A stretch of 24,000 nucleotides of DNA. Source: Aetokthonos hydrillicola CCALA 1050. Its GTDB lineage: Bacteria; Cyanobacteriota; Cyanobacteriia; Cyanobacteriales; Nostocaceae. Under the pieces are notes generated by a model. It made no database searches. It saw nothing but the letters and a program-made list of their open reading frames with translations, and was not told where the DNA came from. Of this stretch, positions 780 to 16,252 are shown in pieces; positions within the stretch are counted from its first letter, which is position 1, and each line of letters begins with the position of its first letter. The stretch lies in assembly GCF_017591665.1 (NCBI RefSeq), contig NZ_JAAKGC010000002.1:126487-150486 (forward strand), given 5' to 3'. Position numbers and translations under genes: made by a program.

Positions 780-1170
780 TCGGGACATGATGCGATCGCG
801 TTCTGTGCTAAGCTATCTCAACGGACAGGTAAAACCTATCGTTTACCAAGTGAAGCAGAGTGGGAATATGCTTGTTGTGCTGGGATAACTACCCCGTTTT
901 ATTTTGGCGAGACGATTACTACTGATTTAGCGAATTATAACGGTGACTGTATTGGTCTATTTTTATTATTAAAAATTTACAATACTTATCCAAAAGGCGT
1001 TTACCGCCAGCAAACAACCGAAGTAGGAAAATTTCCACCAAATGCTTGCGGTTTATATGATATGCATGGTAATGTATGGGGACGTTGTTAAGATACCTGG
1101 TATTATAAATATCAAGGTGCGTCAGATGACAGCGGTGCATGGATGAACGATACTAATAATAATTATTAAT
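780..1170 (+). pseudogene. Decayed fragment of an FGE-sulfatase (SUMF1/EgtB/PvdO-type, C-type-lectin fold) domain gene; third paralogous copy
   Basis: Nucleotide-level similarity to about 10300-10661 and 3565-3920 (translated DAIAFCAKLSQRTGKTYRLPSEAEWEYAC...GVYRQQTTEVGKFPPNACGLYDMHGN). It lacks the N-terminal half and the C-terminal end. It carries a ~24-nt longer replacement around 949-990 and a premature TAA at 1089-1091 (WEWCQD became WGRC*). Confidence 0.8.
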
Positions 1171-1173
1171 AAT

Positions 1174-2841
1174 ATGTTTTTGATCCTTACAGGCACTCCG
1201 CAACCGATAGGCTCGGCATCAGCTAAACTACAACAACCATTATTCTTAATTCCTACTTCGGGAGAAATTACCTCTTTTGGAAGCACCTTGGTGATTTCTC
1301 TGCTCATAGCGTTGTTGAGCTACGTGGCAATATTTTATGGGTTGCGCCTACTATTTCGTCGATGGCAAAACGAAATAGGGCTTGTCACTTTAAATATTTC
1401 GCAAATTCCTGTATTAGCAATCCTGATACTTTTTAGCCTCAAAACCTCTTTTCAGAGATTGTCTCAAACGATAGTTCTTGAGTGGACTGACCGTCTATTA
1501 ACGGCTTTGATGGTAGCAGCGGTAAGTTATTGGGTTGCTCAGCTATTTACTCAAGTTATTGGTTACTACTTGAAAAAGTATGCACAACAAAGTGAGGCAA
1601 TGTGGGATGATGTCTTGATTCCACTTTTAGAAGGTGTCGTTCCAGTTATAGTATACTTGTTCGGTATCTTCTTGTTCTTACAATCATTTAATATTGATTT
1701 AACTGGAATTTGGGTAGCTTTGGGTGGTGCTACATTTGTAATAGGTTTTGCACTTAAGGATATCTTAGCCAATTTCTTTAGTGGTTTAGTCTTGTTAATT
1801 GATACACCCTTTCAATTCGGAGATGTCATCTCTCTACCAAACGGTTCACTCGCAGTTATTAAAAAAGTTGGTATTCGATTAACCAACTTATTTCTTATTG
1901 AGAACCATTGTGAGTTATTCATACCAAATGGTTCTTTAGAAAGCCAAAACATCATGAATCTGAGTCGTCCTGGACCTTTTTATTACTATTCTCTTCATTT
2001 GCCTCTTAGAGCAGATACTGCTCCAGATAAAGCAAAGAAAATTATTAGCGAAGTTATCTTGGCACATCCAGATACTTTGGGGAATATTGATGAGAAGCTT
2101 AGAGTCTTAGATACTTATTATGAATTTGAAAATAACGAGTTTAGTGACTATAAACGGTCTAAGAAAGAAGCCGGAAAGCGACGATTAATAGCAGAAAGAC
2201 ATTTGAATAATAAGCTTATAGAAATCAAACAAACACTTCAAGATTTAGCAGATAAAATTCAAATGTTTGAAAAGGGTGGATTGGATATAGAAGAATCAAG
2301 AACAATTCAAAATTACTATCTGGATATTACCACAAGTATTGGTTTAGAAGTGATGAAAGAGCGTTCTGGCAAACGGCGTTTGTTGAGCCTCGAAGAATCG
2401 CAGATCCTAGAAAATACACTCATAGGGTTGGTGAGAAATTGGTATAAAATTTGGTCACAAGATCCAGATTTAATAGAGGAAGATCCCTATTTCTTGGAGG
2501 AAGAATGGGAGAGAAAAATTCAGTTACTTAAGCGAAGAATAAATAAAGTCTTTATCAAAATTTCGCAACCAAGTATTGATGAACAAAGACTAGATGATTA
2601 TACATTGAGTATAATCAGATGGCTGAATCAAAATTTCAAAAGTACCCAACCAGTTTGGCAGGATCCTAAAGTTTGGGCTGATGGAATAAGAATAGCAGAC
2701 ACTATCGCCACTATGGACTACGTCGTGAAATTTTACGTTGATAATATTAAGTTAGAACAATGTCAACGTGGAAACCGAATCAAAAGTGAAGTTCAAGGAG
2801 AACTGATTCGGCAAATGAAACAACTCTATATCTATCGTTAA
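1174..2841 (+). CDS. Mechanosensitive ion channel family protein (MscS-like) with a long C-terminal extension
   Basis: 555-aa ORF with several N-terminal hydrophobic helices, then the MscS pore/beta-domain signature GGATFVIGFALKDILANFFSGLVLLIDTPFQFGDVI (PF00924-like). The exact start is uncertain. Confidence 0.8.
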   Translation: MFLILTGTPQPIGSASAKLQQPLFLIPTSGEITSFGSTLVISLLIALLSYVAIFYGLRLLFRRWQNEIGLVTLNISQIPVLAILILFSLKTSFQRLSQTIVLEWTDRLLTALMVAAVSYWVAQLFTQVIGYYLKKYAQQSEAMWDDVLIPLLEGVVPVIVYLFGIFLFLQSFNIDLTGIWVALGGATFVIGFALKDILANFFSGLVLLIDTPFQFGDVISLPNGSLAVIKKVGIRLTNLFLIENHCELFIPNGSLESQNIMNLSRPGPFYYYSLHLPLRADTAPDKAKKIISEVILAHPDTLGNIDEKLRVLDTYYEFENNEFSDYKRSKKEAGKRRLIAERHLNNKLIEIKQTLQDLADKIQMFEKGGLDIEESRTIQNYYLDITTSIGLEVMKERSGKRRLLSLEESQILENTLIGLVRNWYKIWSQDPDLIEEDPYFLEEEWERKIQLLKRRINKVFIKISQPSIDEQRLDDYTLSIIRWLNQNFKSTQPVWQDPKVWADGIRIADTIATMDYVVKFYVDNIKLEQCQRGNRIKSEVQGELIRQMKQLYIYR

Positions 2842-3038
2842 TGAATTCTTCAGAGTTTAGCAATGCATAGCCACGGCTAATGTCTAATTCTTCCGTGACT
2901 TCAGCCAAGGAGGTTTGACGGAAGAATTCTGATAGTTTAGTTGGTTGATCTGAGTGGGTGTTTTTATTATGAAATGCTAATTCGATACTTTCCCTCTTAT
3001 CACGAAGAGCATCTGAAGGTAGTCCATTACGAGATCAC

Positions 3039-4061
3039 TTGTTGTTAAGCTTTATGACAGAACAGCCAAAACTCGCTGTTGAGGTGCTAGATAGTTTCGG
3101 TCATTTACTAGAAAACCAAAAAAGAAGCACTCCACAGACTAGAAAATTAACTCGCCGACAGTTTATCAAAGGGGTTGGTTTTGCTAGTGCAGGATTGCTA
3201 GGAGTAATAACGCTGCAGCGAGTGTTTCAGGAGAATCTGCAGCAGTTTGAATTTCAGGTAGTGAAGGTGGATGCAACAGGAAAAATTATCAAGAGCAACA
3301 CTAGTAGCGCAAATTTCTTTACTGAAGATTTGGGCAATGGTGTCACTTTGGATATGGTGGAAATTCCTGGGGGTAAGTTTGTTATGGGTTCCCCGTCAAC
3401 AGAAAAGGATAGATCTGATTCTGAACGTCCACAGCACAATGTTACAATTAAACCTTTTTATATAGGCAAGTTTACCATTACCCAACAGCAATATCAGGCA
3501 GTTATGGGGAAAAATCCCTCCAACTTCAAAGGAGAAAAACGACCTGTTGAACAAGTAAGCTGGGATGATGCGATCGCGTTCTGTGATAAACTATCTCAAA
3601 GGACAGGTAAAACCTATCGGCTACCAAGTGAAGCTGAGTGGGAATATGCTTGTCGTGCTCTTACAACTACCCCGTTTTATTTTGGTGAGACAATTACTAC
3701 GGATTTAGCGAATTATTACGGTAGCTCAACTTATGCATCTGAACCAAAAGGCGTTTACCGTCAGCAAACAACCGAAGTAGGAAAATTTCCACCAAACGCT
3801 TGGGGTTTATATGATATGCATGGTAATATATGGGAGTGGTGTCAAGATACCTGGCATGATAGCTATGAAGGTGCGCCGGTTGACGGCACTGCATGGGTGA
3901 GCGATGATAAAAATAATACACTACATCTGCTGCGGGGTGGTGCTTGGAACAACGTTCCGAGAATATGCCGAACAATAGATCGCGATTGGTTCGCGCGCGA
4001 CTACTCGGACAGCAATGTAGGTTTTCGCGTGGTTGCGGTTAGTGCAGCCAGGACTGTTTAG
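3039..4061 (+). CDS. Standalone FGE-sulfatase-domain protein with Tat-like signal/anchor; paralog of the C-terminal module of the 956-aa protein
   Basis: 340-aa ORF. RLPSEAEWEYACR, GLYDMHGNIWEWCQD and LLRGGAW...GFRVV are typical of PF03781/CLec-fold domains. TRRQFIKGVGFASAGLLGV fits the twin-arginine consensus (S/T-R-R-x-F-L-K plus a hydrophobic stretch). The start is either TTG 3039 or ATG 3054, and an in-frame TGA lies at 2970-2972. Confidence 0.8.
   Translation: MLLSFMTEQPKLAVEVLDSFGHLLENQKRSTPQTRKLTRRQFIKGVGFASAGLLGVITLQRVFQENLQQFEFQVVKVDATGKIIKSNTSSANFFTEDLGNGVTLDMVEIPGGKFVMGSPSTEKDRSDSERPQHNVTIKPFYIGKFTITQQQYQAVMGKNPSNFKGEKRPVEQVSWDDAIAFCDKLSQRTGKTYRLPSEAEWEYACRALTTTPFYFGETITTDLANYYGSSTYASEPKGVYRQQTTEVGKFPPNAWGLYDMHGNIWEWCQDTWHDSYEGAPVDGTAWVSDDKNNTLHLLRGGAWNNVPRICRTIDRDWFARDYSDSNVGFRVVAVSAARTV
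3927..4061 (+). other. VR-like hypervariable 3' end of the standalone paralog
   Basis: It corresponds to 10670-10804. In the 24 codons between W and GFR, 14 differ from the other copy, mostly in codon positions 1-2. This copy keeps more AAC/AAT codons (aac aac ... aat). Confidence 0.6.
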
Positions 4062-4184
4062 CACTTTATTAATTCTTCCAAGCGGCTAAACTTCTCTAGT
4101 AAACCTAACATTGTTACTGCTCCAACATTCCTTTAATTTTAACTATGAAGTGATGCACCTATCTTTCTGTTAGGTAAACTTGAC

Positions 4185-4547
4185 GCGATCGCTCCCAACA
4201 TAGATATTCGTGGTAAAATACAGCAAGCTGACCTCAAACGCTCAGCAAAAAGTCTCAATCCTGACGGATGGCGACGAGTTAACAACAGCCCGAATCCTTT
4301 TAAAAGCTTGCAGCGCTACTTGGGAGTAATACCGTTTCTTTATGAAGCTGCATTTATGAACCCCCCGGCTGCGCCGTCCCCCCTTACCAAGGGGGGACTA
4401 CAGGGGGGTAAAGTTATGTGCGTCTTCATATAAAATTGGGAGTAGCACCAGAGCAAGGGGAAAAAGCTGTTTCGGTGATTGGGTTTTGAAGAGAAACAGA
4501 CAGAAGATTGCGGAAAATTGTATGCTCAGCTTGTATTAAGGCTTGAA
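4185..4547. repeat. Left copy of a 198-bp direct repeat (4185-4299 + 4465-4547), interrupted by a 165-bp insertion
   Basis: gcgatcgctcccaacatagatattcgtggt.aaatacagcaagctgacctcaaacg... and ...agctgtttcggtgattgggttttgaa.agaaacagacagaagattgcggaaaa...cttgtattaaggcttgaa recur, near-identical, at 15983-16180. Confidence 0.9.
4329..4435. mobile_element. MITE-like palindromic element (copy A), possibly flanked by a 9-bp duplication TTGGGAGTA
   Basis: Imperfect terminal inverted repeats (tttatgaagctgcat / atgtgcgtcttcata) and a G/C palindromic core (ccccttaccaagggg). ttgggagta occurs at 4320-4328 and 4436-4444. The element is absent from the other copy of the 198-bp repeat. A related element lies at 5583-5688. 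Confidence 0.6.
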
Positions 4548-4570: not shown

Positions 4571-5563
4571 ATGAAACCCGCGAAAAAAATATTAATGTTA
4601 TCAGCAAATCCTAAGAACACAAATCCTTTACGCTTAGGGGAAGAAGCACGGAAAATTCAAGAAGCGTTGAAACTAGCTAAACATCGAGATGAGTTTGAAA
4701 TTGCGACTTCTTGGGCAGTACGAGTAGAAGATTTACGCCGTGCAATGATAGACTATCAACCGAATATCATTCATTTTTCCGGACATGGAGTGGGAGCAGA
4801 GGGTTTGGCATTTGAAGATAATTCTGGGATGACGCAGTTGGTGAGCAGCGAGGCTATAGCAAGTTTATTTGAATTGTTTCGTGGAACAGTTGAGTGTGTC
4901 CTACTTAACGCCTGCTATAGCGAAGTTCAAGCACAAGCAATTCACCAGCACGTTGATCACGTAATTGGGATGAATCAGTCAATTGGGGACGTAGCTGGAA
5001 TTGAATTTACTATTGGCTTTTATGATGCTTTGGGTGCTGGAGAAAGCTATGACTATGCTTTTAGGATGGGGTGTAATGCTATTCAGCTAAAAGCTAGCCA
5101 GGAAAATTCAACACCAGTCATTAAATCTAGACCATCTTCTGTTTCTGTTAAAAAAGCTGTAAAATCCGATGTTATGTCTGAAAAAAAATCACAACAAAAA
5201 TCCAGTGAGGGAATTGTCTTTAACATTAGCGGTGCTAAAATAGGCGGTGGGATACAAGCTGTACAGGGTGATAACAATCTACAAAGCATGACTAACTATG
5301 CAGCTATTGAACAAAAGTTAAATCTTGCAGAAGTTGCAAAAGAAATTCAACAACTTTTGCAAAAAATAGAAAATTCAAATCCTGCCACAACGAGATTAGA
5401 AAAACTAATGATTGTTACTAAAGCTGTTGAACACATTGAAAATAATTCAGCCTTGAAAGCGCGTGTATTAGAATTAATCAACGCAGATAGAAAAGAAGCT
5501 TTAAAAAAAGAAATTAACCACCCGTTAGCAAAGATTGTACTAGAATCTATAGAAGATTTGTAA
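4571..5563 (+). CDS. Caspase/CHAT-like protease-fold protein (predicted effector) with a Ser/Lys-rich linker and helical C-terminus
   Basis: 330-aa ORF. The N-terminal ~170 aa carry the His...Cys arrangement of clan-CD peptidases: NIIHFSGHG (H68/H72), then ~40 residues later VLLNACYS (C115). This is the widespread cyanobacterial ILxLxANP...RL..E.R.I...L N-terminal module. It is the first gene of a co-directional cluster. Confidence 0.6.
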   Translation: MKPAKKILMLSANPKNTNPLRLGEEARKIQEALKLAKHRDEFEIATSWAVRVEDLRRAMIDYQPNIIHFSGHGVGAEGLAFEDNSGMTQLVSSEAIASLFELFRGTVECVLLNACYSEVQAQAIHQHVDHVIGMNQSIGDVAGIEFTIGFYDALGAGESYDYAFRMGCNAIQLKASQENSTPVIKSRPSSVSVKKAVKSDVMSEKKSQQKSSEGIVFNISGAKIGGGIQAVQGDNNLQSMTNYAAIEQKLNLAEVAKEIQQLLQKIENSNPATTRLEKLMIVTKAVEHIENNSALKARVLELINADRKEALKKEINHPLAKIVLESIEDL

Positions 5564-5820: not shown

Positions 5821-6960
5821 ATGAGTAACAATTTACCCCCTGAAGATAATTTACCACTCATTAAAGACTCAAATATTGAATTCCAGGCAAAAAATTCCAC
5901 AATTGATGGTGGAGTAAAAGTTATTCAGGGGAACGACAATATCCAGATTCACCAGGTTGTTGTTGGAAAGGTCACCTTTGAAAGTAGTATTCGGAAGCAT
6001 GTAAAACGACCTCGTTCTGAACAGGAACCTCCCTCTCTGCTGCCATATTTAGTAAATAGAAAAGAACAGGAAGAGGAGTTAGAAAACGCAGTTAAACTGT
6101 TGTTGAAACAAGTCCATCCTCGCCCTCTAGTTTGCATTATTCATGGTAGCGAATTTCAAGGTCATTATCAATTTTTAAAGCGGTTGCAAAAATCCTTTCT
6201 GCCAAGATTTTTAAAATTAGATCCAACCCAGAAGGTACAGGAATACTGTCTCGAGTGGCCGACTGGATTAAAAAATTTAGATCTACTGAAGGATCGGTTA
6301 TGCAAAAATCTAGTAACCAAAGTTCTAGGTCATGATTTTGATTGTCCGGAAGAAATTAATGCTACTTTAAAAGAAATAAATGCAAGCTTCTGCAAATACC
6401 CTAGTCCAATTGTCATTGATACTCATATACGTACTCAAGACTGGCAGCAGCAAGGATTTGAAATATTAAATAAACTGTTGGAGTTTTGGGACAATTGGCC
6501 TGATCTTATTCCAGGACAGAGACTCATAGTCTGTGTATTTATTAAATACACTATCTATCTGCACAAACATACTGAAGAATTTTCGTTTCCACGGATTTTC
6601 AATTGCTTGCCCAGTTTGTACAAGCGGCATTACTATCAAAGTATAAATAAAAAGATTTCAAAAGTACTTAATAAATCAAAAAATAAACATTTTAATCGCT
6701 TATCGTATACTATCTTGTCAGAATTGAAAAATATTAACATAATGCATGTTGAACACTGGGTACGCGATAAAGAAACGAAACAGTTTGTTGGTGAGGAGAA
6801 GACTCAGAAACTGATTAATGACGTAACACTTATGTTTAATCATTGGGGAAAGGACACAATTCCTATGGATGATTTAGCTGATGAGTTAACTCGCCTACTA
6901 AAGTCACTAAAAGTTACTAATTATACTCATGATAAGAAAAAGCCTAATAGGAGCAAATAG
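5821..6960 (+). CDS. Hypothetical protein; possible inactive STAND-like / vWA-MoxR-associated adaptor
   Basis: 379-aa ORF. LPYLVNRKEQEEELENAV...RPLVCIIHGSEFQGHYQFLKRL sits where a STAND NTPase would have its Walker A, but no GxxxxGK[ST] is present. It ends 2 nt before the AAA+ gene, with an AGGAG 10 nt upstream of that start. The family assignment is inference only. Confidence 0.35.
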   Translation: MSNNLPPEDNLPLIKDSNIEFQAKNSTIDGGVKVIQGNDNIQIHQVVVGKVTFESSIRKHVKRPRSEQEPPSLLPYLVNRKEQEEELENAVKLLLKQVHPRPLVCIIHGSEFQGHYQFLKRLQKSFLPRFLKLDPTQKVQEYCLEWPTGLKNLDLLKDRLCKNLVTKVLGHDFDCPEEINATLKEINASFCKYPSPIVIDTHIRTQDWQQQGFEILNKLLEFWDNWPDLIPGQRLIVCVFIKYTIYLHKHTEEFSFPRIFNCLPSLYKRHYYQSINKKISKVLNKSKNKHFNRLSYTILSELKNINIMHVEHWVRDKETKQFVGEEKTQKLINDVTLMFNHWGKDTIPMDDLADELTRLLKSLKVTNYTHDKKKPNRSK

Positions 6961-6962
6961 AT

Positions 6963-7949
6963 ATGAAATTTCCATTCTACAGAGGTGATGGAACTCGACA
7001 GCAGTATGAATCGCCAGCAAAACTACCTATCTCTAGGCGTTCTCTACTACTGAAGCCAGAATATTACATTGCTGATCTAGGACTTAAAGATGCTTGTAAT
7101 GTAGCCCTCTTATTGGGACAACCCCTTCTGCTTACGGGAGAACCCGGAACTGGAAAGACTCAATTTGCCTACAGTCTTGCATGGGAACTTGGTTTCGATC
7201 CACCATTAAAGTTTGAAACTAAGTCTACTAGTACCGCTCGGGATCTTTTCTATACCTATGATGCATTGAAACGTTTCCAAGATGCCCAAAGCGGTGTTTT
7301 ATCAAGCCCCTTGGATTATATCACCTACCAAGCTCTGGGGCTGGCGATTTTACTAACCCGAGATCCGGCTGAGGTTGAGCAAATCTTACCATCAAATTTC
7401 GCACATCCTGGCAAAGTACGCTCTGTTATTTTAATTGATGAAATTGATAAAGCTCCTCGTGACTTCCCAAATGATCTGCTCAATGAACTGGAACACATGT
7501 ATTTTCGTATTCCAGAGTTAGGAAATAAAATAATTGAAACTGATCCAGCACTCCAACCCATTGTAATTATTACCAGCAATACTGAAAAGGATTTGCCAGA
7601 TGCCTTTCTACGGCGTTGCATTTATTATGATATTCCCTTCCCAGAGCATGAGAGACTTGCAGAAATTATTGCCAACCGCCTTGGACTTTATAATGGTAGC
7701 AGCAATCCATTTTTACAAGATGCTCTTGACTTATTTTATCAATTACGTTCCCCTCAAAGTGGTTTAAGGAAAAAACCTGCAACAGCTGAACTATTAGGTT
7801 GGCTCTTGGCTCTAAAAACCGTTGCTGGTGATACACCTAATCCCTTAGATAAATTAGATCTGGTTCAAGCTACCCTCAGTAGCTTAGTCAAAACTTCCGA
7901 AGATCAAGAAAAAGCTAGACAACTTGTAAAGCAATGGATGCTGCAATAG
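6963..7949 (+). CDS. MoxR-like AAA+ ATPase (AAA_5-type)
   Basis: 328-aa ORF with Walker A LLLTGEPGTGKT, Walker B VILIDEIDKA and sensor region IVIITSNTEKDLPDAFLRRC. It overlaps the downstream gene by 16 nt. Confidence 0.8.
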   Translation: MKFPFYRGDGTRQQYESPAKLPISRRSLLLKPEYYIADLGLKDACNVALLLGQPLLLTGEPGTGKTQFAYSLAWELGFDPPLKFETKSTSTARDLFYTYDALKRFQDAQSGVLSSPLDYITYQALGLAILLTRDPAEVEQILPSNFAHPGKVRSVILIDEIDKAPRDFPNDLLNELEHMYFRIPELGNKIIETDPALQPIVIITSNTEKDLPDAFLRRCIYYDIPFPEHERLAEIIANRLGLYNGSSNPFLQDALDLFYQLRSPQSGLRKKPATAELLGWLLALKTVAGDTPNPLDKLDLVQATLSSLVKTSEDQEKARQLVKQWMLQ

Positions 7950-10804
7950 AAATAAATATCCCTGACTGGTTAAATCGCAATGTTCTAACCGATTTTATTG
8001 ATGAACTCAGAGATGCAGGCTATAACATTGGCATTGCTCAGTATATTGCAGCTTATGATTTAATCTTAGCACTAACGGCTCAGGGTGAACCCTTGAATAA
8101 ACCAGAGCGTCTCAAAACTCTGCTTGGACCAATCTTTTGTAGTTCACCAGCTGAGCAGGAAGATTTTCAGCAACGCTTTGACCGTTGGGTTGAGTTGGTT
8201 TGTCAAACTGGTCGCGCAACGGAGGGAGCAGATGTAAAAGCTCAAGCATTATCAGAAGAATTAGGAAAGATCGAAAGGCGTTTGCCTCAGTTAAATAGAA
8301 GACTTATTCTAATTGCTCTAACAGGAATCATTCTACCCTTGTTCTTGGAACAGTCTATAAAAGATGAGAGTACTAGGCCAAAACAACCTTCTGCGAAACA
8401 ACCTTCCGCAAAACAACCTTCTACAACACAACCTTCTACAACACAACCTTCTACAACACAACCTTCTACAACACAACCTTCTACAACATTTGTAACGCCA
8501 CGCAATCGAGACTTTCCACAGGATTGGCAGATATATTTGTTCTCTTTTTTGCTTACTTCTGGTATTATTTTTATAGTGTGGCGTTTATGGTGGTTATGGC
8601 GTGCTCGCCTGTTCTTACAGCGTCATGGAACTACGAAACAGCCTGAGCTATATAAGATTGCTTTCCGTGAATTTGAGCAAAACTTATTCCCTACAATTAT
8701 ATTGATACATGCTGCTCAGAGTTTAAGGTATCGAATCCGTATCCCATCCGATGAACTTGATATTGATAAAACCATTGATGCAACTTTTCGCCAAGGAGGA
8801 TGGCTGACACCAGTATACGGTATTCGTCAAGTTCTTCCCGAGTATCTGTTTCTTATTGATCGTGCTAGCTACTCTGATCATCAGGCTAAATTTATAGAAG
8901 AGATGGTTGAGCGCCTTAAACACAATGGAGTTTTTATCACAAGCTATTTCTTTGATGATGATCCGCGAATTTGCTTTCCTAGTGATGGTATAAGCTCTCC
9001 ACAGAAACTTAACGAAATAGCAGCAAAATTTGCTCAACATCGCCTTGTTATCGTCTCAGATATAGAGAAGCTATTTAGTTCTCAAACTGGTGAGCTAGAA
9101 TCTTGGGTGAGTCAAATGACAAGCTGGGAGCATAGAGCTATTTTAACCCCAAAACCTTTCGAAAGTTGGGGATATCAAGAGTTAGAACTCGCACGCCAGT
9201 TTATTGTTTTACCCGCAACTCCTCAAGGGGTGCGATCGCTTAGCCAAGTTTTACATCACGGATCTGCAACCTACGTTCTCTCTGAAAAAGACCAAAATCC
9301 TCTACCGGAAACGTTGCGTACTCAACCCCATTACTGGATTGAGCGCAACCCGCCAAAACCTGAGCAGATCAATACAATGTTAAACTCATTGCAGGAATAT
9401 CTCGGCGAAGACGGTTTTTACTGGCTCAGCGCTTGTGCTGTTTTTCCGGAGTTACATTGGAACATTACAATCTATCTGGGTAATGCTCTCAAAACAGAGG
9501 ACAGTCAAAGTCTTTTGGAGGTTTGTTCACTAACTAATCTGGCTCGCTTACCCTGGTTTCGTTATGGTTACATACCAGATTGGTTGCGTTCTCGTCTCAT
9601 TGCAACCCTTACATACGAACAGAAGCATACAATCCGCACTGCACTTCAAGATTTACTCATCACTGCTGTTCAGGGATCTGTAGGTAGACAGCAATTAGAA
9701 GTTGCACAAAAGCATCACAGTTTTCTACCTAAACTTGCTAATTCGATACTTTCCCTGTTATCTAGAAGAGCGACTGAAGGTAGTCCATTACGAGACTACT
9801 TGTTTTTAAGCTTTATGACGGGACAGCCAAAACTCGCTGTTGAGGTGCTAGATACTTTCAGTCATTTACTACAAAAGCCACAAAGAATCACTCGGCGACA
9901 GTTTATCAAATGGGCTGGTTTTGTTAGTGCAGGATTCGTAGGAGCAATAGCGCTGCAGCAACTGTTTCAGGAGAATCTGCAGCAGTTTGAATTTCCGGTA
10001 GTGAAGGTGGATGCAACAGGAAAAATTACCAACCGCACGAATAAACAAGCAAATTTCTTTACTGAAGATTTGGGTAATGGTGTGACTTTAGATATGGTAG
10101 AAATTCCTGGGGGTAAGTTTGTTATGGGTTCCCCGTCAACAGAAAAGGATAGATCTGATTCTGAAGGTCCACAGCACAATGTGACGATTAAACGTTTTTT
10201 CATGGGCAAGTTTACCATTACCCAGCAGCAATATCAGGCAGTTATGGGGAAAAATCCCTCGAACTTCAAAGGAGAAAAACGACCTGTTGAAGGAGTAAGT
10301 TGGGATGATGCGATCGCTTTCTGTGCTAAACTATCTCAAAGGACAGGTAAAACCTATCGGCTACCAAGTGAAGCTGAGTGGGAATATGCTTGTCGTGGTT
10401 GGACTACTACGCCGTTTTATTTTGGTGAGACGATTACAACGGATTTAGCAAATTATAACGGTGACTATACTTATGCATCTGAACCAAAAGGCGTTTACCG
10501 TCAGCAAACAACCGAAGTAGGAAAATTTCCACCAAACGCTTGCGGTTTATATGATATGCATGGTAATATATGGGAGTGGTGTCAAGATACCTGGCATGAT
10601 AACTACCAAGGTGCGCCAGATGACGGCACTGCATGGGTGAGCGATAATAATGTTAATAATTCTCGACGTCTGCTGCGTGGCGGTTCGTGGGTCAACGATC
10701 CGAGGTTCTGTCGTTCGGCGTTTCGCGTCAGGCTCGCGCGCGCCTTCTCGAACGACCTTGTGGGTTTTCGCGTGGTCGTGGTTGGTGCAGCCAGGACTCA
10801 TTAG
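7934..10804 (+). CDS. Membrane protein: CoxE-like N-domain, TM hairpin with PST repeat, vWA-like domain (degenerate MIDAS), Tat-like anchor, FGE-sulfatase/CLec domain carrying a DGR variable region
   Basis: 956-aa ORF. The N-terminus FIDELRDAGYNIG...EDFQQRFDRWV and the middle ELDIDKTIDATFRQGG...EYLFLIDRASYSD...VFITSYFFDDD are collinear with CoxE-type vWA proteins (PF05762) as I remember them. Hydrophobic segments are LILIALTGIILPLFL, IYLFSFLLTSGIIFIVWRLWWLW and WAGFVSAGFVGAIAL (the last preceded by TRRQFIK). The C-terminus has RLPSEAEWEYACR, GLYDMHGNIWEWCQD and LLRGGSW...GFRVV. Confidence 0.75.
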   Translation: MDAAIEINIPDWLNRNVLTDFIDELRDAGYNIGIAQYIAAYDLILALTAQGEPLNKPERLKTLLGPIFCSSPAEQEDFQQRFDRWVELVCQTGRATEGADVKAQALSEELGKIERRLPQLNRRLILIALTGIILPLFLEQSIKDESTRPKQPSAKQPSAKQPSTTQPSTTQPSTTQPSTTQPSTTFVTPRNRDFPQDWQIYLFSFLLTSGIIFIVWRLWWLWRARLFLQRHGTTKQPELYKIAFREFEQNLFPTIILIHAAQSLRYRIRIPSDELDIDKTIDATFRQGGWLTPVYGIRQVLPEYLFLIDRASYSDHQAKFIEEMVERLKHNGVFITSYFFDDDPRICFPSDGISSPQKLNEIAAKFAQHRLVIVSDIEKLFSSQTGELESWVSQMTSWEHRAILTPKPFESWGYQELELARQFIVLPATPQGVRSLSQVLHHGSATYVLSEKDQNPLPETLRTQPHYWIERNPPKPEQINTMLNSLQEYLGEDGFYWLSACAVFPELHWNITIYLGNALKTEDSQSLLEVCSLTNLARLPWFRYGYIPDWLRSRLIATLTYEQKHTIRTALQDLLITAVQGSVGRQQLEVAQKHHSFLPKLANSILSLLSRRATEGSPLRDYLFLSFMTGQPKLAVEVLDTFSHLLQKPQRITRRQFIKWAGFVSAGFVGAIALQQLFQENLQQFEFPVVKVDATGKITNRTNKQANFFTEDLGNGVTLDMVEIPGGKFVMGSPSTEKDRSDSEGPQHNVTIKRFFMGKFTITQQQYQAVMGKNPSNFKGEKRPVEGVSWDDAIAFCAKLSQRTGKTYRLPSEAEWEYACRGWTTTPFYFGETITTDLANYNGDYTYASEPKGVYRQQTTEVGKFPPNACGLYDMHGNIWEWCQDTWHDNYQGAPDDGTAWVSDNNVNNSRRLLRGGSWVNDPRFCRSAFRVRLARAFSNDLVGFRVVVVGAARTH
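8381..8485 (+). repeat. In-frame 15-nt tandem repeat, 7 units, encoding (KQPSA)2-KQPST-(TQPST)4
   Basis: Units aaacaaccttctgcg / aaacaaccttccgca / aaacaaccttctaca / acacaaccttctaca x4, read directly. It lies between the first two hydrophobic segments of the 956-aa protein. Confidence 0.95.
10670..10804 (+). other. DGR variable region (VR) at the 3' end of the 956-aa gene
   Basis: Its 5' 18 nt (ctgctgcgtggcggttcg) are repeated exactly at 12427-12444 just after the RT gene. The segment is the only strongly divergent part between two otherwise ~85-90% identical paralogs. It occupies the canonical LLRGGSW...GFRV position of CLec-fold DGR targets, and avd and RT are immediately downstream. Confidence 0.7.
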
Positions 10805-10855
10805 CCCTTTACTCTCTTGCACTTTTGCACTCTACCCTCTATTATTTACCTTTAC

Positions 10856-10882
10856 TCCGCCGCAGGCGGATCGATTTTTTTT
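10856..10882 (+). terminator. Hairpin plus T-run downstream of VR (intrinsic terminator; possibly also the DGR target-site hairpin)
   Basis: tccgcc-gca-ggcgga (6-bp GC-rich stem, 3-nt loop) at 10856-10870, followed by tcga and tttttttt (10875-10882). Confidence 0.6.
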
Positions 10883-10894
10883 GAGTTTTTTAAG

Positions 10895-11091
10895 ATGAGC
10901 GATTTGCCTATTATACAGAAAACCTACGATTTGATCAAGTGGTATGTCCCAATTTTAAACCGCGTGCCGAGAGAACATAAATTTTTATTGGCAAACCGGA
11001 TGATTACAGGACTGTACGATATTCGGGATGCTCTGATCGTAGCACGGTATTCCACCAAAGACAAGTTAGCTCAGTTAGAATCTTTGAAGAA
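10895..11091 (+). pseudogene. avd: DGR accessory variability determinant (Avd), 3'-truncated
   Basis: MSDLPIIQKTYDLIKWYVPILNRVPREHKFLLANRMITGLYDIRDALIVARYSTKDKLAQLESL matches the N-terminal half of cyanobacterial Avd proteins as I recall them. From 11092 the frame runs into a GAATTCAGGAGTCA-repeat hairpin element and ends at 11173. No second half of avd follows before the RT start. ATG 10895 is preferred over the listed 10817 start, which lies upstream of the terminator. Confidence 0.6.
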
Positions 11092-11310
11092 GAATTCAGG
11101 AGTCAGAATTCAGGAGTCAGAACAAGAGCGTAAGGGATTCGATTCAAACCTGCCACTAATTGCAGACCGCTAAATCTTCTCCTATCGGAGACGCTACGCG
11201 TAGCTTGCTTCCCCAAAGGGGTACGATTTAGCCGGGGTCTTAAGCCCCTTAACTCATCTGCCAGTCGTACAGAATTCATGCGCTCATTCTGACTCCTGAT
11301 TCCTGAGTTC
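11092..11310. mobile_element. ORF-less hairpin element with inverted heptamer-repeat arms, replacing the 3' half of avd
   Basis: The left arm is (gaattcaggagtca)x2 at 11092-11119. The right arm ttctgactcctgattcctgagttc at 11287-11310 is its imperfect reverse complement. The interior contains further palindromes (gctaaatc...gatttagc). Confidence 0.55.
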
Positions 11311-11329: not shown

Positions 11330-12391
11330 ATGAAACGACATGGTAATCTGTGGAAGGACGTTATCGCGTTTGAGAATTTACTAACAGCTAGCCGGAAAGC
11401 ACAACGGGGCAAACGTTTTCGAGACAATGTTCTGTCGTTCAATTACAATCTAGAGAAAGAGCTATTTCAACTACAAGCAGAATTACAGTCAAAAACATAC
11501 AATCCCGGTTTATATACAACATTTCGGATTTTTGAACCAAAGCCACGTCTGATTTCTGCTGCTCCTTATCGCGATAGAGTAGTACATCACGCTCTTTGCA
11601 ACATTATTGCTCCTATTTTTGAAAGAACATTCATTCATGATTCCTACGCTAACCGCGTTGGTTTTGGCAGTCACCGCGCGTTACGTCGTTTTACAAGCTT
11701 TGCGCGCTCAAGTCGCTACATTCTGCAATGCGATATTCGCAAATATTTTCCCAGCATCGACCATGAAATTTTAAGGTCACTGGTACGCCGTAAAATCAAA
11801 TGCCGTGATACACTCTGGCTAATCGACAATATTATTGATGCAAGTAACCCTCAAGAACCAGTTATCGATTACTTCCCTGGTGATGATTTACTTATGCCTT
11901 TGGAACGACGAAGAGGCTTGCCAATTGGTAATTTAACCAGCCAATTCTTTGCGAATGTATACCTTAACAGTTTAGATCATTTTGTTAAAGAACAAATCAA
12001 AGCGACCAAATATGTTCGCTACGTTGATGATTTTGCTTTGTTTTCAGATGACCGAGAATTTTTAGAAAACGCAAGACGAGAAATCGAAGAACACCTTGCT
12101 AGTCTGAGGCTCAAGCTTCATCCTGTTAAGAGCCAATTATTTCAGACAAAACACGGTGCCAATTTTGTTGGTTTTCGCATCTTACCAAATCGGATTCGAG
12201 TAAGGAACGATAATCTGCGTCTCGCAAGGCGAAGATTACGAAAGATGGTTTTAGACTATAGAGAGGGCAAAATTACCCAACAGGAAGTATCTCAGTCAAT
12301 TCGGAGTTGGATTGGTCACTTAAAACATGGAGATACTTGGCGATTGCGCCAGGAAATATTTAGTTCTCTCGTGTTTTCAAAAAAACCCTAA
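11330..12391 (+). CDS. DGR-type reverse transcriptase
   Basis: 353-aa intact ORF beginning MKRHGNLW. It has the RT motifs [26 protein letters not shown] (the [I/L]GxxxSQ motif typical of DGR RTs) and the catalytic [11 protein letters not shown]. Confidence 0.85.
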
Positions 12392-12426
12392 TATGTTATC
12401 CTCAACTGTGGGGTAGGCAATACCGA

Positions 12427-12444
12427 CTGCTGCGTGGCGGTTCG
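12427..12444 (+). other. 5' stub of the DGR template repeat (TR)
   Basis: An 18-nt exact match to the start of VR (10670-10687), located 36 nt after the RT stop. The match stops at the edge of the inserted cassette (12445). A tgg that would continue the match follows the cassette at 12881-12883. Confidence 0.55.
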
Positions 12445-12880
12445 AATTCAGTTATCAGTTATCAGTTATCAGTTATCAGTCGATTATGAATAGTTTAGTT
12501 TATGAGAAAGCGTATAAATTTGCCATTCGCATTGTAAACGCATACAAATATCTTTCTGAAGAGAAGAAAGAATATATTTTATCAAAGCAATTAATTAGAA
12601 GCGGAACCTCAATTGGAGCTAATATCGCTGAAGCTAATGGAGCAATATCTCAAGCAGATTTTTGCTGCAAAATTTCTATTGCTTATAAAGAATGCTTGGA
12701 AACGAAATATTGGCTTTCTTTGTTAAAAGATACAGCATACATTGAGCAGAAAGCATTTGATAGCATTTATGAAGATGCAGATGAAATAGGAAAAATTCTA
12801 TTTTCAATCCTTAAAAAAACAAAAATTAAACAACAATCAATAGAATGATAACTGATAACTGATAACTGATAACTGATAAG
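12445..12880. mobile_element. IVS-like cassette: four-helix-bundle gene flanked by inverted heptamer arrays, inserted in the TR
   Basis: (cagttat)x4 at 12449-12476 and (gataact)x4 at 12847-12874 are reverse complements of each other. The interior is visibly more AT-rich than the flanks. Like the element in avd, it starts with gaattcag. Confidence 0.65.
12486..12848 (+). CDS. Four helix bundle protein (23S rRNA intervening-sequence protein / Avd superfamily)
   Basis: 120-aa ORF. LIRSGTSIGANIAEANGAISQADFCCKISIAYKECLETKYWLSLL is the hallmark of the TIGR02436/PF05635 family. Confidence 0.8.
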   Translation: MNSLVYEKAYKFAIRIVNAYKYLSEEKKEYILSKQLIRSGTSIGANIAEANGAISQADFCCKISIAYKECLETKYWLSLLKDTAYIEQKAFDSIYEDADEIGKILFSILKKTKIKQQSIE

Positions 12881-15982: not shown

Positions 15983-16180
15983 GCGATCGCTCCCAACATA
16001 GATATTCGTGGTCAAATACAGCAAGCTGACCTCAAACGAGCAGCAAAAAGTCTCAATCGTGACTGATGGGGACGAGTTAACAACAGCATAAATCCTTAGC
16101 TGTTTCGGTGATTGGGTTTTGAACAGAAACAGACAGAAGATTGCGGAAAATAGTCTAGCCAGCTTGTATTAAGGCTTGAA
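15983..16180. repeat. Right copy of the 198-bp direct repeat
   Basis: Near-identical to 4185-4299 + 4465-4547. It lies just downstream of the mutS stop. In one frame it ends a start-less open frame ...FPPDLLGAIAPNIDIRGQIQQADLKRAAKSLNRD*. Confidence 0.9.
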
Positions 16181-16252
16181 AGTCAAAGGACTTGAAAGGT
16201 TTGTTGTTGTGCTTGAGTGCGCTAAAGCGCAACTACGAACGAACGAGTACAA

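Follow-up and report, generated by a model that had tools for sequence, protein, structure and literature searches.

A partial copy of a diversity-generating retroelement target gene in a cyanobacterium, apparently frozen beyond the reach of its retroelement

How a short gene came to repeat the end of a large neighbor, and whether its product still serves the cell, are the questions raised by a 24,000-nt stretch of the Aetokthonos hydrillicola CCALA 1050 genome (G000:C158:126487-150486, hereafter the window; the parent assembly comprises 9.0 Mb in 457 contigs, with a gene content that indicates a filamentous cyanobacterium). The large gene encodes a 956-amino-acid (aa) protein and lies in a locus that includes a diversity-generating retroelement (DGR). 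Both it and the short gene encode an FGE-sulfatase domain of the C-type-lectin (CLec) fold (PF03781, E ~1e-56), and in the short protein the variable region (VR) lies at the extreme C terminus. Here, we present sequence support for the short gene being a partial duplicate of the 3' end of the 956-aa gene, copied from long to short, and we propose that the copy is a frozen, DGR-orphaned paralog under relaxed constraint. The coordinates of the features discussed are collected in Table 1.

The similarity between the two segments (2975-4068 and 9736-10811) is far beyond chance. By MAFFT and BLAST, the segments form a single colinear match of ~1.09 kb, with 87% identity counting gaps and 87-90% overall, and a repeat finder recovered the match in parts, pairing 2975-3132 with 9736-9893 (89%), 3143-3442 with 9883-10182 (90%), and, in the VR part, 3980-4068 with 10723-10811 (80%). 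The original prediction, that 2976-4061 is a near-copy of 9737-10804 and begins right after an in-frame TGA at 2970-2972, held on both counts. Two indels separate the copies, one of 21 nt that is extra in the short copy (~3130-3150) and one of 3 nt at the VR edge, and both are in frame. Homology ends abruptly at 2975/9736 on the left and at 4068/10811 on the right, the latter 7 nt beyond the stop codons, with at most 3 nt of microhomology at the junctions, and the duplication was an illegitimate junction event. The antitoxin gene remnant that abuts the left junction has an intact homolog elsewhere in the genome, where it adjoins a PIN/VapC gene (C350:21598-22250). The frame of the short open reading frame (ORF) is open, and an identical 335-aa gene call starting at ATG 3054 is present in the protein collection; the exact 335-aa protein, looked up on other contigs, is not on record there. 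Recent gene conversion between the copies was considered and rejected. Identical runs of 58 to 74 nt are present, and the two that could be compared with 60-nt windows (from 10469 and from 10544) overlap a window in which a caspase-FGE paralog, too, is conserved, and thus point to constraint rather than conversion. No conversion tract between the short and long copies was seen.

What the copy retained argues for the direction of the event. The N-terminal ~650 residues of the 956-aa protein constitute a scaffold that is widespread in cyanobacteria and is fused to varied C-terminal domains (FGE, CVNH, MORN, TPR, WD40, pentapeptide, PhnD, CHASE2, lysozyme, trypsin, and amidase). Across 19 aligned scaffold proteins, the opening stretch of the short copy (ANSILSLLSRRA.EGSPLRD..FLSFMT.QPKLAVEV) was conserved regardless of the domain that followed. 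The first ~50 codons of the copy are scaffold tail, not FGE module. The short ORF starts at ATG 3054, the conserved internal Met of the tail motif FLSFMT, which leaves part of the tail upstream of the start. Because the copy begins inside the conserved scaffold tail, the direction is long to short. Moreover, the genome has one scaffold gene only, and full-length fused homologs (45-58% identity) occur in many genera. The order iSTAND-MoxR-scaffold::FGE-Avd is syntenic in two other genera (G013 and G017), with CHAT, the reverse transcriptase (RT), and the template repeat also present in G013, and the 17- to 19-kb stretches examined of G013 and G017 contain no standalone copy. Together, the scaffold-tail alignment and the conserved fused operon uphold the earlier claim that the 3' end of the large gene was copied out.

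The FGE module itself says less about parentage. In a tree of module copies, the long gene, the short gene, and the caspase-FGE paralog form a supported clade (96/87) in which the internal order is not resolved, and parentage therefore rests on the tail and anchor rather than on the FGE core. An empty-site comparison through the neighboring MscS gene found best orthologs that were 44-45% identical, too distant for synteny. In one scaffold::FGE gene, what looked like a natural split at the same conserved Met (P0166; L024 5910-5925, with ORFs of 584 and 332 aa) was rejected as an assembly artifact because the gap is a run of N in a metagenome scaffold from the European Nucleotide Archive.

Whether the copy has kept pace with other targets of the DGR can be read from its VR. 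Six sister VRs have a common backbone, namely, those of the long gene, of the caspase-FGE gene (C158:114375-116483), and of loci on four further contigs (C182:34.2k, C263:132.4k, C36:129.1k, and C90:29.7k, beside C158:114.3k for the caspase-FGE gene). The sisters vary in 25 of the 30 columns that have adenine in the template repeats of related DGRs versus 7 of the 60 others (p=2e-11), and variation so nearly confined to template-adenine columns indicates that the six VRs were written by a DGR. Of the 92 backbone positions that do not vary among the six sisters, the short VR is mismatched at 15, compared with 0 to 5 mismatches for the sisters (Fisher p=6e-8). Eight of its substitutions, mostly towards A, fall within the 12 nt of 3966-3977, where the short VR reads CGAACAATAGAT and the sisters read CGTTCGGCGTAT. 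The cluster is too tight for random drift and changes a near-invariant CRSAxR motif to CRTIDR. The short VR backbone partly resembles the template repeat of an RT-less DGR remnant on contig C264. The 16% divergence of the backbone is about what would be expected from the synonymous divergence of the copies (dS 0.14-0.16), provided that template and orphan VR have been drifting apart since the split.

The short copy also differs from the sisters in what follows the stop codon. Each of the six VRs, which are dispersed and have upstream genes sharing only 65-85% identity, is followed by a conserved 3' element (ending in a CCGCCGCAGGCGG hairpin plus a T-run); the C36 copy of the element is a variant. 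The hairpin/T-run element is absent after the short copy, as the match to the parent ceases 7 nt past the stop codon and no such sequence is present farther on. Cut at that point, the copy thus never had the element. Efficient homing in phage BPP-1 requires that the VR be followed downstream by a GC-rich inverted repeat (Guo et al. 2011, PLoS Genet, PMC3240598). The element here is likewise an inverted repeat found 3' of VRs, but it has a 5-bp stem, a 3-nt loop, and a T-run after it, and its distance from the stop codon is ~52 nt, whereas the phage set (PMC3240598) has stems of 7 to 10 bp and GRNA loops located 4 to 34 bp from the VR. Missing from the short copy, the 75-nt element is the only obvious cis difference between the orphan and its sisters, and it points to a candidate homing determinant for the cyanobacterial DGR clade.

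The local DGR, moreover, is broken. It retains an intact RT ORF, but avd breaks off at ~aa 64 and nearly all of the template repeat is deleted. The remainder of the template repeat has been replaced by a repeat-flanked cassette with a 23S_rRNA_IVP gene (12486-12848), and homology to the G013 locus resumes ~200 nt past the template repeat of G013. A cognate template repeat was not found elsewhere in the 9.0-Mb assembly, where the search returned only VR copies in FGE genes and the template repeat of the unrelated C264 remnant; the template repeats of the genome's other DGRs (C17 and C282) have different backbones. The earlier suggestions that the short copy might be a donor for the main VR, or a second specificity (the latter if kept up by the DGR), are weakened by the absent 3' element, the drifted VR, the lack of a conversion tract, and the broken DGR. 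The C264 remnant (C264:103300-107616, minus strand) is another decayed DGR locus, in which the template repeat and the last RT codons are kept and the RT itself is gone. We note that it adjoins two genes, one of 936 aa that is FGE-ended and one of 270 aa that is a standalone FGE gene, and a long-plus-short pair of targets recurs there.

Where the short protein would reside is suggested by a signal inherited from the parent. The motif TRRQFIK occupies residues 32 to 38 counted from ATG 3054 and is followed by a hydrophobic region of 15 residues (Kyte-Doolittle 1.84). Against the NCBI twin-arginine translocation (Tat) model TAT_signal_seq (TIGR01409; cutoff, 16.7 bits), the whole short protein scores 17.6 bits and its first 69 aa score 20.6 bits, which is, if anything, above the parent's score. 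No AxA signal-peptidase site follows the hydrophobic region (LQRVFQEN), and an uncleaved anchor is thus likelier than a free periplasmic protein. We consider the short protein more likely to be an N-in/C-out membrane anchor. Of the original prediction, that the copy carries a normal twin-arginine signal and is a free periplasmic protein, the motif and its position stand on sequence support, while the free periplasmic state loses ground to the missing AxA site. For a cyanobacterial protein, either the plasma or the thylakoid membrane is a possible target.

The twin-arginine (RR) motif seems to belong with the FGE domain. In the parent, the RR motif and the last transmembrane (TM) segment lie at window positions 9890-9955. 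All FGE fusions (36/36) have the pattern RRxF[LIM] ahead of their last TM segment, versus 9/56 other scaffold fusions; the counts come from related sequences, such that the statistics overstate independence. The pattern was not seen in WD40, TPR, CVNH, MORN, or pentapeptide fusions, and those identified among the nine are PhnD, lysozyme, and amidase. The hydrophobicity of the last TM region is 1.87 in the RR class versus 2.29 in the others. The RR signal and the FGE domain thereby appear to travel as one unit, and their strict pairing suggests that the scaffold sensors may be Tat exported. Standalone RR-FGE proteins of ~333 aa occur in Dolichospermum/Anabaena in housekeeping surroundings, and the short copy thus recreates a natural architecture. 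The parent resembles dual Sec-Tat proteins, such as the actinobacterial Rieske protein Sco2149 (Keller 2012, PMC3471235; Tooke 2017, PMC5449189), in having an even number (two) of TM segments, an RR motif, a last TM segment of low hydrophobicity, and a folded outer domain; the short copy, which keeps only the last RR-TM segment, would resemble a classical uncleaved Tat anchor. Unlike the Sco2149 type, there is no known cofactor for the FGE domain, and the parent has no positive charges directly after the TM segment, where the short copy has one R.

Whether the short gene is functional or decaying is a closer call. When neutral change of the parental sequence was simulated (60 to 80 substitutions), the 335-codon frame stayed open in a fraction of only 0.04 to 0.08 of the trials. 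The Pfam score of the short copy equals that of its parent, and the ratio of nonsynonymous to synonymous change (dN/dS) between the copies is 0.42 in the FGE core. An AlphaFold2 model of the short protein had a mean predicted local distance difference test (pLDDT) score of 66 and a predicted template-modeling (pTM) score of 0.71, with a confident FGE core and an N-terminal extension of all-beta type that is typical of TvpA-like FGS domains. The best relatives of solved structure by sequence are TvpA, variable protein 1 of Treponema denticola (PDB 2Y3C, E=5e-25), and PvdO (5HHA, E=1.5e-39). The short protein is like both in its FGE-type C-type-lectin fold and C-terminal VR, but TvpA is a spirochete DGR lipoprotein and PvdO is an enzyme-like periplasmic protein, and neither is a truncated form of a larger sensor. 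The MscS gene, 200 nt upstream in the same orientation and lacking a predicted terminator, could allow transcription of the short gene by read-through. On these sequence features, we judge the prospect that the product of the short gene is still made and functional to be evenly balanced.

How might these observations fit together? In the explanation that we prefer, a 1,094-bp piece of a DGR target gene (codons 601 to 956 plus 7 nt) was copied to a site 6.7 kb upstream, where it lies against a truncated antitoxin gene. A conserved internal Met has become the start codon, and the parent's internal RR-anchor has become N-proximal. Lacking the 3' element, the copy could presumably not be rewritten by the retroelement, and the short VR may have kept its old state and drifted while other VRs stayed homogenized to the template backbone. 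The local DGR probably broke later as well. The short gene would then most likely still encode a Tat-inserted, N-in/C-out anchored, lectin-like binder, one of fixed specificity, with no signaling scaffold and under relaxed selection. We regard the explanation as a whole as reasonably probable, and its structural and evolutionary part as highly so. Three points detract from it. A close relative that could date the event or supply an empty site was not found. The n-region ahead of the hydrophobic stretch is long (33 aa), besides lacking an AxA site downstream. And the hairpin, at its ~52-nt distance from the stop codon, is terminator-like too; as the element also differs from that of BPP-1, a role in homing is only inferred, and it may be either a homing determinant or a terminator of the DGR target cassette.

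The remaining points against the preferred explanation are also those that would favor a dead relic, that is, a product of rearrangement in a decaying region that is neither transcribed nor useful and whose frame is open by chance. Dissected by branch with the caspase-FGE paralog as the third sequence, the short copy has 6 synonymous versus 11 nonsynonymous codon changes, for which neutrality was not rejected (p=0.20), while the long branch, with 11 synonymous versus 6 nonsynonymous changes, is under purifying selection (p=4e-4). The dN/dS of the tail and anchor region is 0.94. Residues S307 and A308 of the CRSAxR motif, whose conservation across 30 aligned sequences is at least 90%, have been replaced in the short copy. 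A scan of the plus strand over 2700-3786 found no promoter or terminator consensus, and no obvious Shine-Dalgarno sequence was seen. Finally, the surroundings are wrecked, with the 785-1167 fragment, the antitoxin remnant, the truncated avd, and the deleted template repeat all close by. Against a relic stand the open frame, which few simulated neutral histories preserved, the two indels that are both multiples of three, the FGE-core dN/dS below 1, and a Tat-model score that, if anything, exceeds the parent's. We consider a relic a serious possibility that nonetheless falls somewhat short of an even chance. An older origin at the same site is unlikely. Were the short copy the last remnant of an older, related (tandem) island, mostly deleted since, then a separate lineage with its own template repeat would explain both the 10-13% divergence and the odd VR backbone, parts of which match the C264 template repeat and not the local VR family. 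The present island is bracketed by 201-nt direct repeats, and the copy sits 117 nt beyond the left one, which is 92% identical to its partner at 15983-16183, which suggests an age similar to that of the two copies. Moreover, four-taxon site patterns are mosaic, with 5 sites uniting long and short and 5 sites uniting short and the caspase paralog. Set against such an island are the 116-nt spacer separating copy and direct repeat, which matches nothing else in the genome, the two precise deletions that would be required, and the 89-91% identity of the tail and anchor to the genome's single scaffold gene.

Could the order of events have been the reverse, a standalone FGE gene with a Tat signal being the ancestor and a copy of it being fused here to the scaffold to make the 956-aa gene? 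Standalone RR-FGE proteins do exist in other cyanobacteria, and the joint travel of the RR signal and FGE domain across scaffold fusions makes an ancient fusion plausible in deep time. For the present event, however, the scaffold-tail alignment and synteny contradict this direction: the short copy has ~50 codons of a tail known from scaffold proteins that have no FGE domain, part of it upstream of the short start codon, and the fused homologs of many genera are much older than copies that are 87-90% identical. The fused operon is also syntenic in G013 and G017. We rate a fusion at this site as exceedingly improbable. We can speculate on one further use of the duplication. A sensor end copied without its 3' homing element would be an archive, one retroelement-written specificity removed from the mutagenic cycle. 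Though we think this rather improbable, a Tat-anchored binder with no output could, if the idea is true, compete with the diversifying iSTAND sensor or prescreen ligands for it, and so act next to an adaptive receptor as a memory or decoy that is hard-wired.

How the event compares with known systems bears on its significance. The variable proteins of cyanobacterial DGRs include remote variable proteins and intragenomic "CLec-only" paralogs, and it was proposed that fixation of a variant ends its diversification (Vallota-Eastman et al. 2020, BMC Genomics, PMC7517822). Like those paralogs, the short copy is a recent in-genome duplication of a C-terminal CLec/FGE module with a VR remnant, a single-domain protein beside a multidomain one. 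Unlike in those cases, the parent is identified, the direction is set by the retained scaffold tail, and the junctions are resolved to the base; the short copy, moreover, carries a predicted export signal and demonstrably lacks the 3' element of the sister VRs. The duplication of CLec targets of DGRs is already documented in cyanobacteria, and the event is a known pattern of modest general significance. What is new is the fixing of parent and direction by sequence, the base-level junctions, the inherited export signal, and the comparison of one orphan with six VRs. That comparison is a clean, natural one for a DGR target beyond its element's reach, as the orphan backbone drifted 16% while the sisters have 0 to 5 mismatches in ~93 positions. 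The parent, in turn, resembles iSTAND-type MoxR-vWA ternary conflict systems that combine an FGS effector/sensor with a DGR (Kaur, Burroughs, Iyer, Aravind 2020, eLife, PMC7159879), in which FGS is the commonest iSTAND effector and extra domains are always N-terminal to FGS in the cyanobacterial architectures described. The parent lies in a like order of CHAT, iSTAND, MoxR-AAA, a large FGS-ended protein, Avd, and RT, whereas the short copy has no vWA or scaffold part and lies outside the operon. The case also shows how single-domain "CLec-only" paralogs can arise from the large sensors of conflict systems.

Table 1. Positions of the short copy, its parent, and neighboring features in the window
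Feature	Position	Strand	Description
Duplicated segment (copy)	2975-4068	+	Scaffold tail, RR-anchor, FGE-sulfatase/CLec domain, VR, stop codon plus 7 nt
Parental segment	9736-10811	+	Inside 956-aa gene, residues 601-956 plus 7 nt
Short ORF	3054-4061	+	335 aa from ATG 3054, 340 aa from TTG 3039; PF03781 E=1.4e-56
Putative twin-arginine-like signal/anchor	3147-3215	+	Residues 32-54: TRRQFIK plus 15-residue hydrophobic region
Short-copy VR	3927-4021	+	Backbone diverged at 15/92; 8 changes within 12 nt
956-aa parent gene	7934-10804	+	Scaffold (aa 1 to ~650, two TM segments), internal RR-anchor, FGE-sulfatase/CLec domain, VR
Conserved 3' element	10805-10882	+	~75 nt; hairpin CCGCC-GCA-GGCGG at 10857-10869 plus T-run
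avd	10895-11173	+	First ~64 residues Avd-like; paralogs 112-120 aa; remainder is heptamer-repeat element
DGR reverse transcriptase	11330-12391	+	ORF intact
Template-repeat remnant	12424-12444	+	21 nt, sole surviving piece
Antitoxin gene 3' remnant	2874-2971	-	C-terminal half; cut exactly at left junction of copy
Third FGE-module partial copy	785-1167	+	Broken by 24-nt insertion and premature stop; stops at 5' edge of VR position
CHAT gene	4571-5563		Upstream of 956-aa gene; Pfam match
iSTAND gene	5821-6960		After CHAT; Pfam match
MoxR-type AAA+ gene	6963-7949		Directly before 956-aa gene; AAA_5/AAA Pfam matches

The gene order around the parent is CHAT, iSTAND, MoxR AAA+, the 956-aa gene, avd, the DGR reverse transcriptase, and the template-repeat stump. 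A Pfam search of the 956-aa protein gave no vWA match at E<=0.01, while its neighbors gave matches to CHAT, iSTAND, and AAA_5/AAA; the short copy itself has no CHAT, iSTAND, MoxR, or vWA part. For the 956-aa gene, the protein collection has no more than a 562-aa call (P0001), and seven tandem 15-nt units (8364-8503) encode a Pro/Ser/Thr/Gln repeat between TM segments 1 and 2 of its product. The left 201-nt direct repeat is interrupted by an insert of ~165 nt (4300-4464) that resembles a miniature inverted-repeat transposable element and has many copies on other contigs at 77-88% identity. Further, more distant FGE modules are dispersed across the genome, as found by BLAST. In the module tree, the 785-1167 fragment is sister to the clade of the long, short, and caspase copies, and we note that it has states in common with the long gene at 10602-10654.

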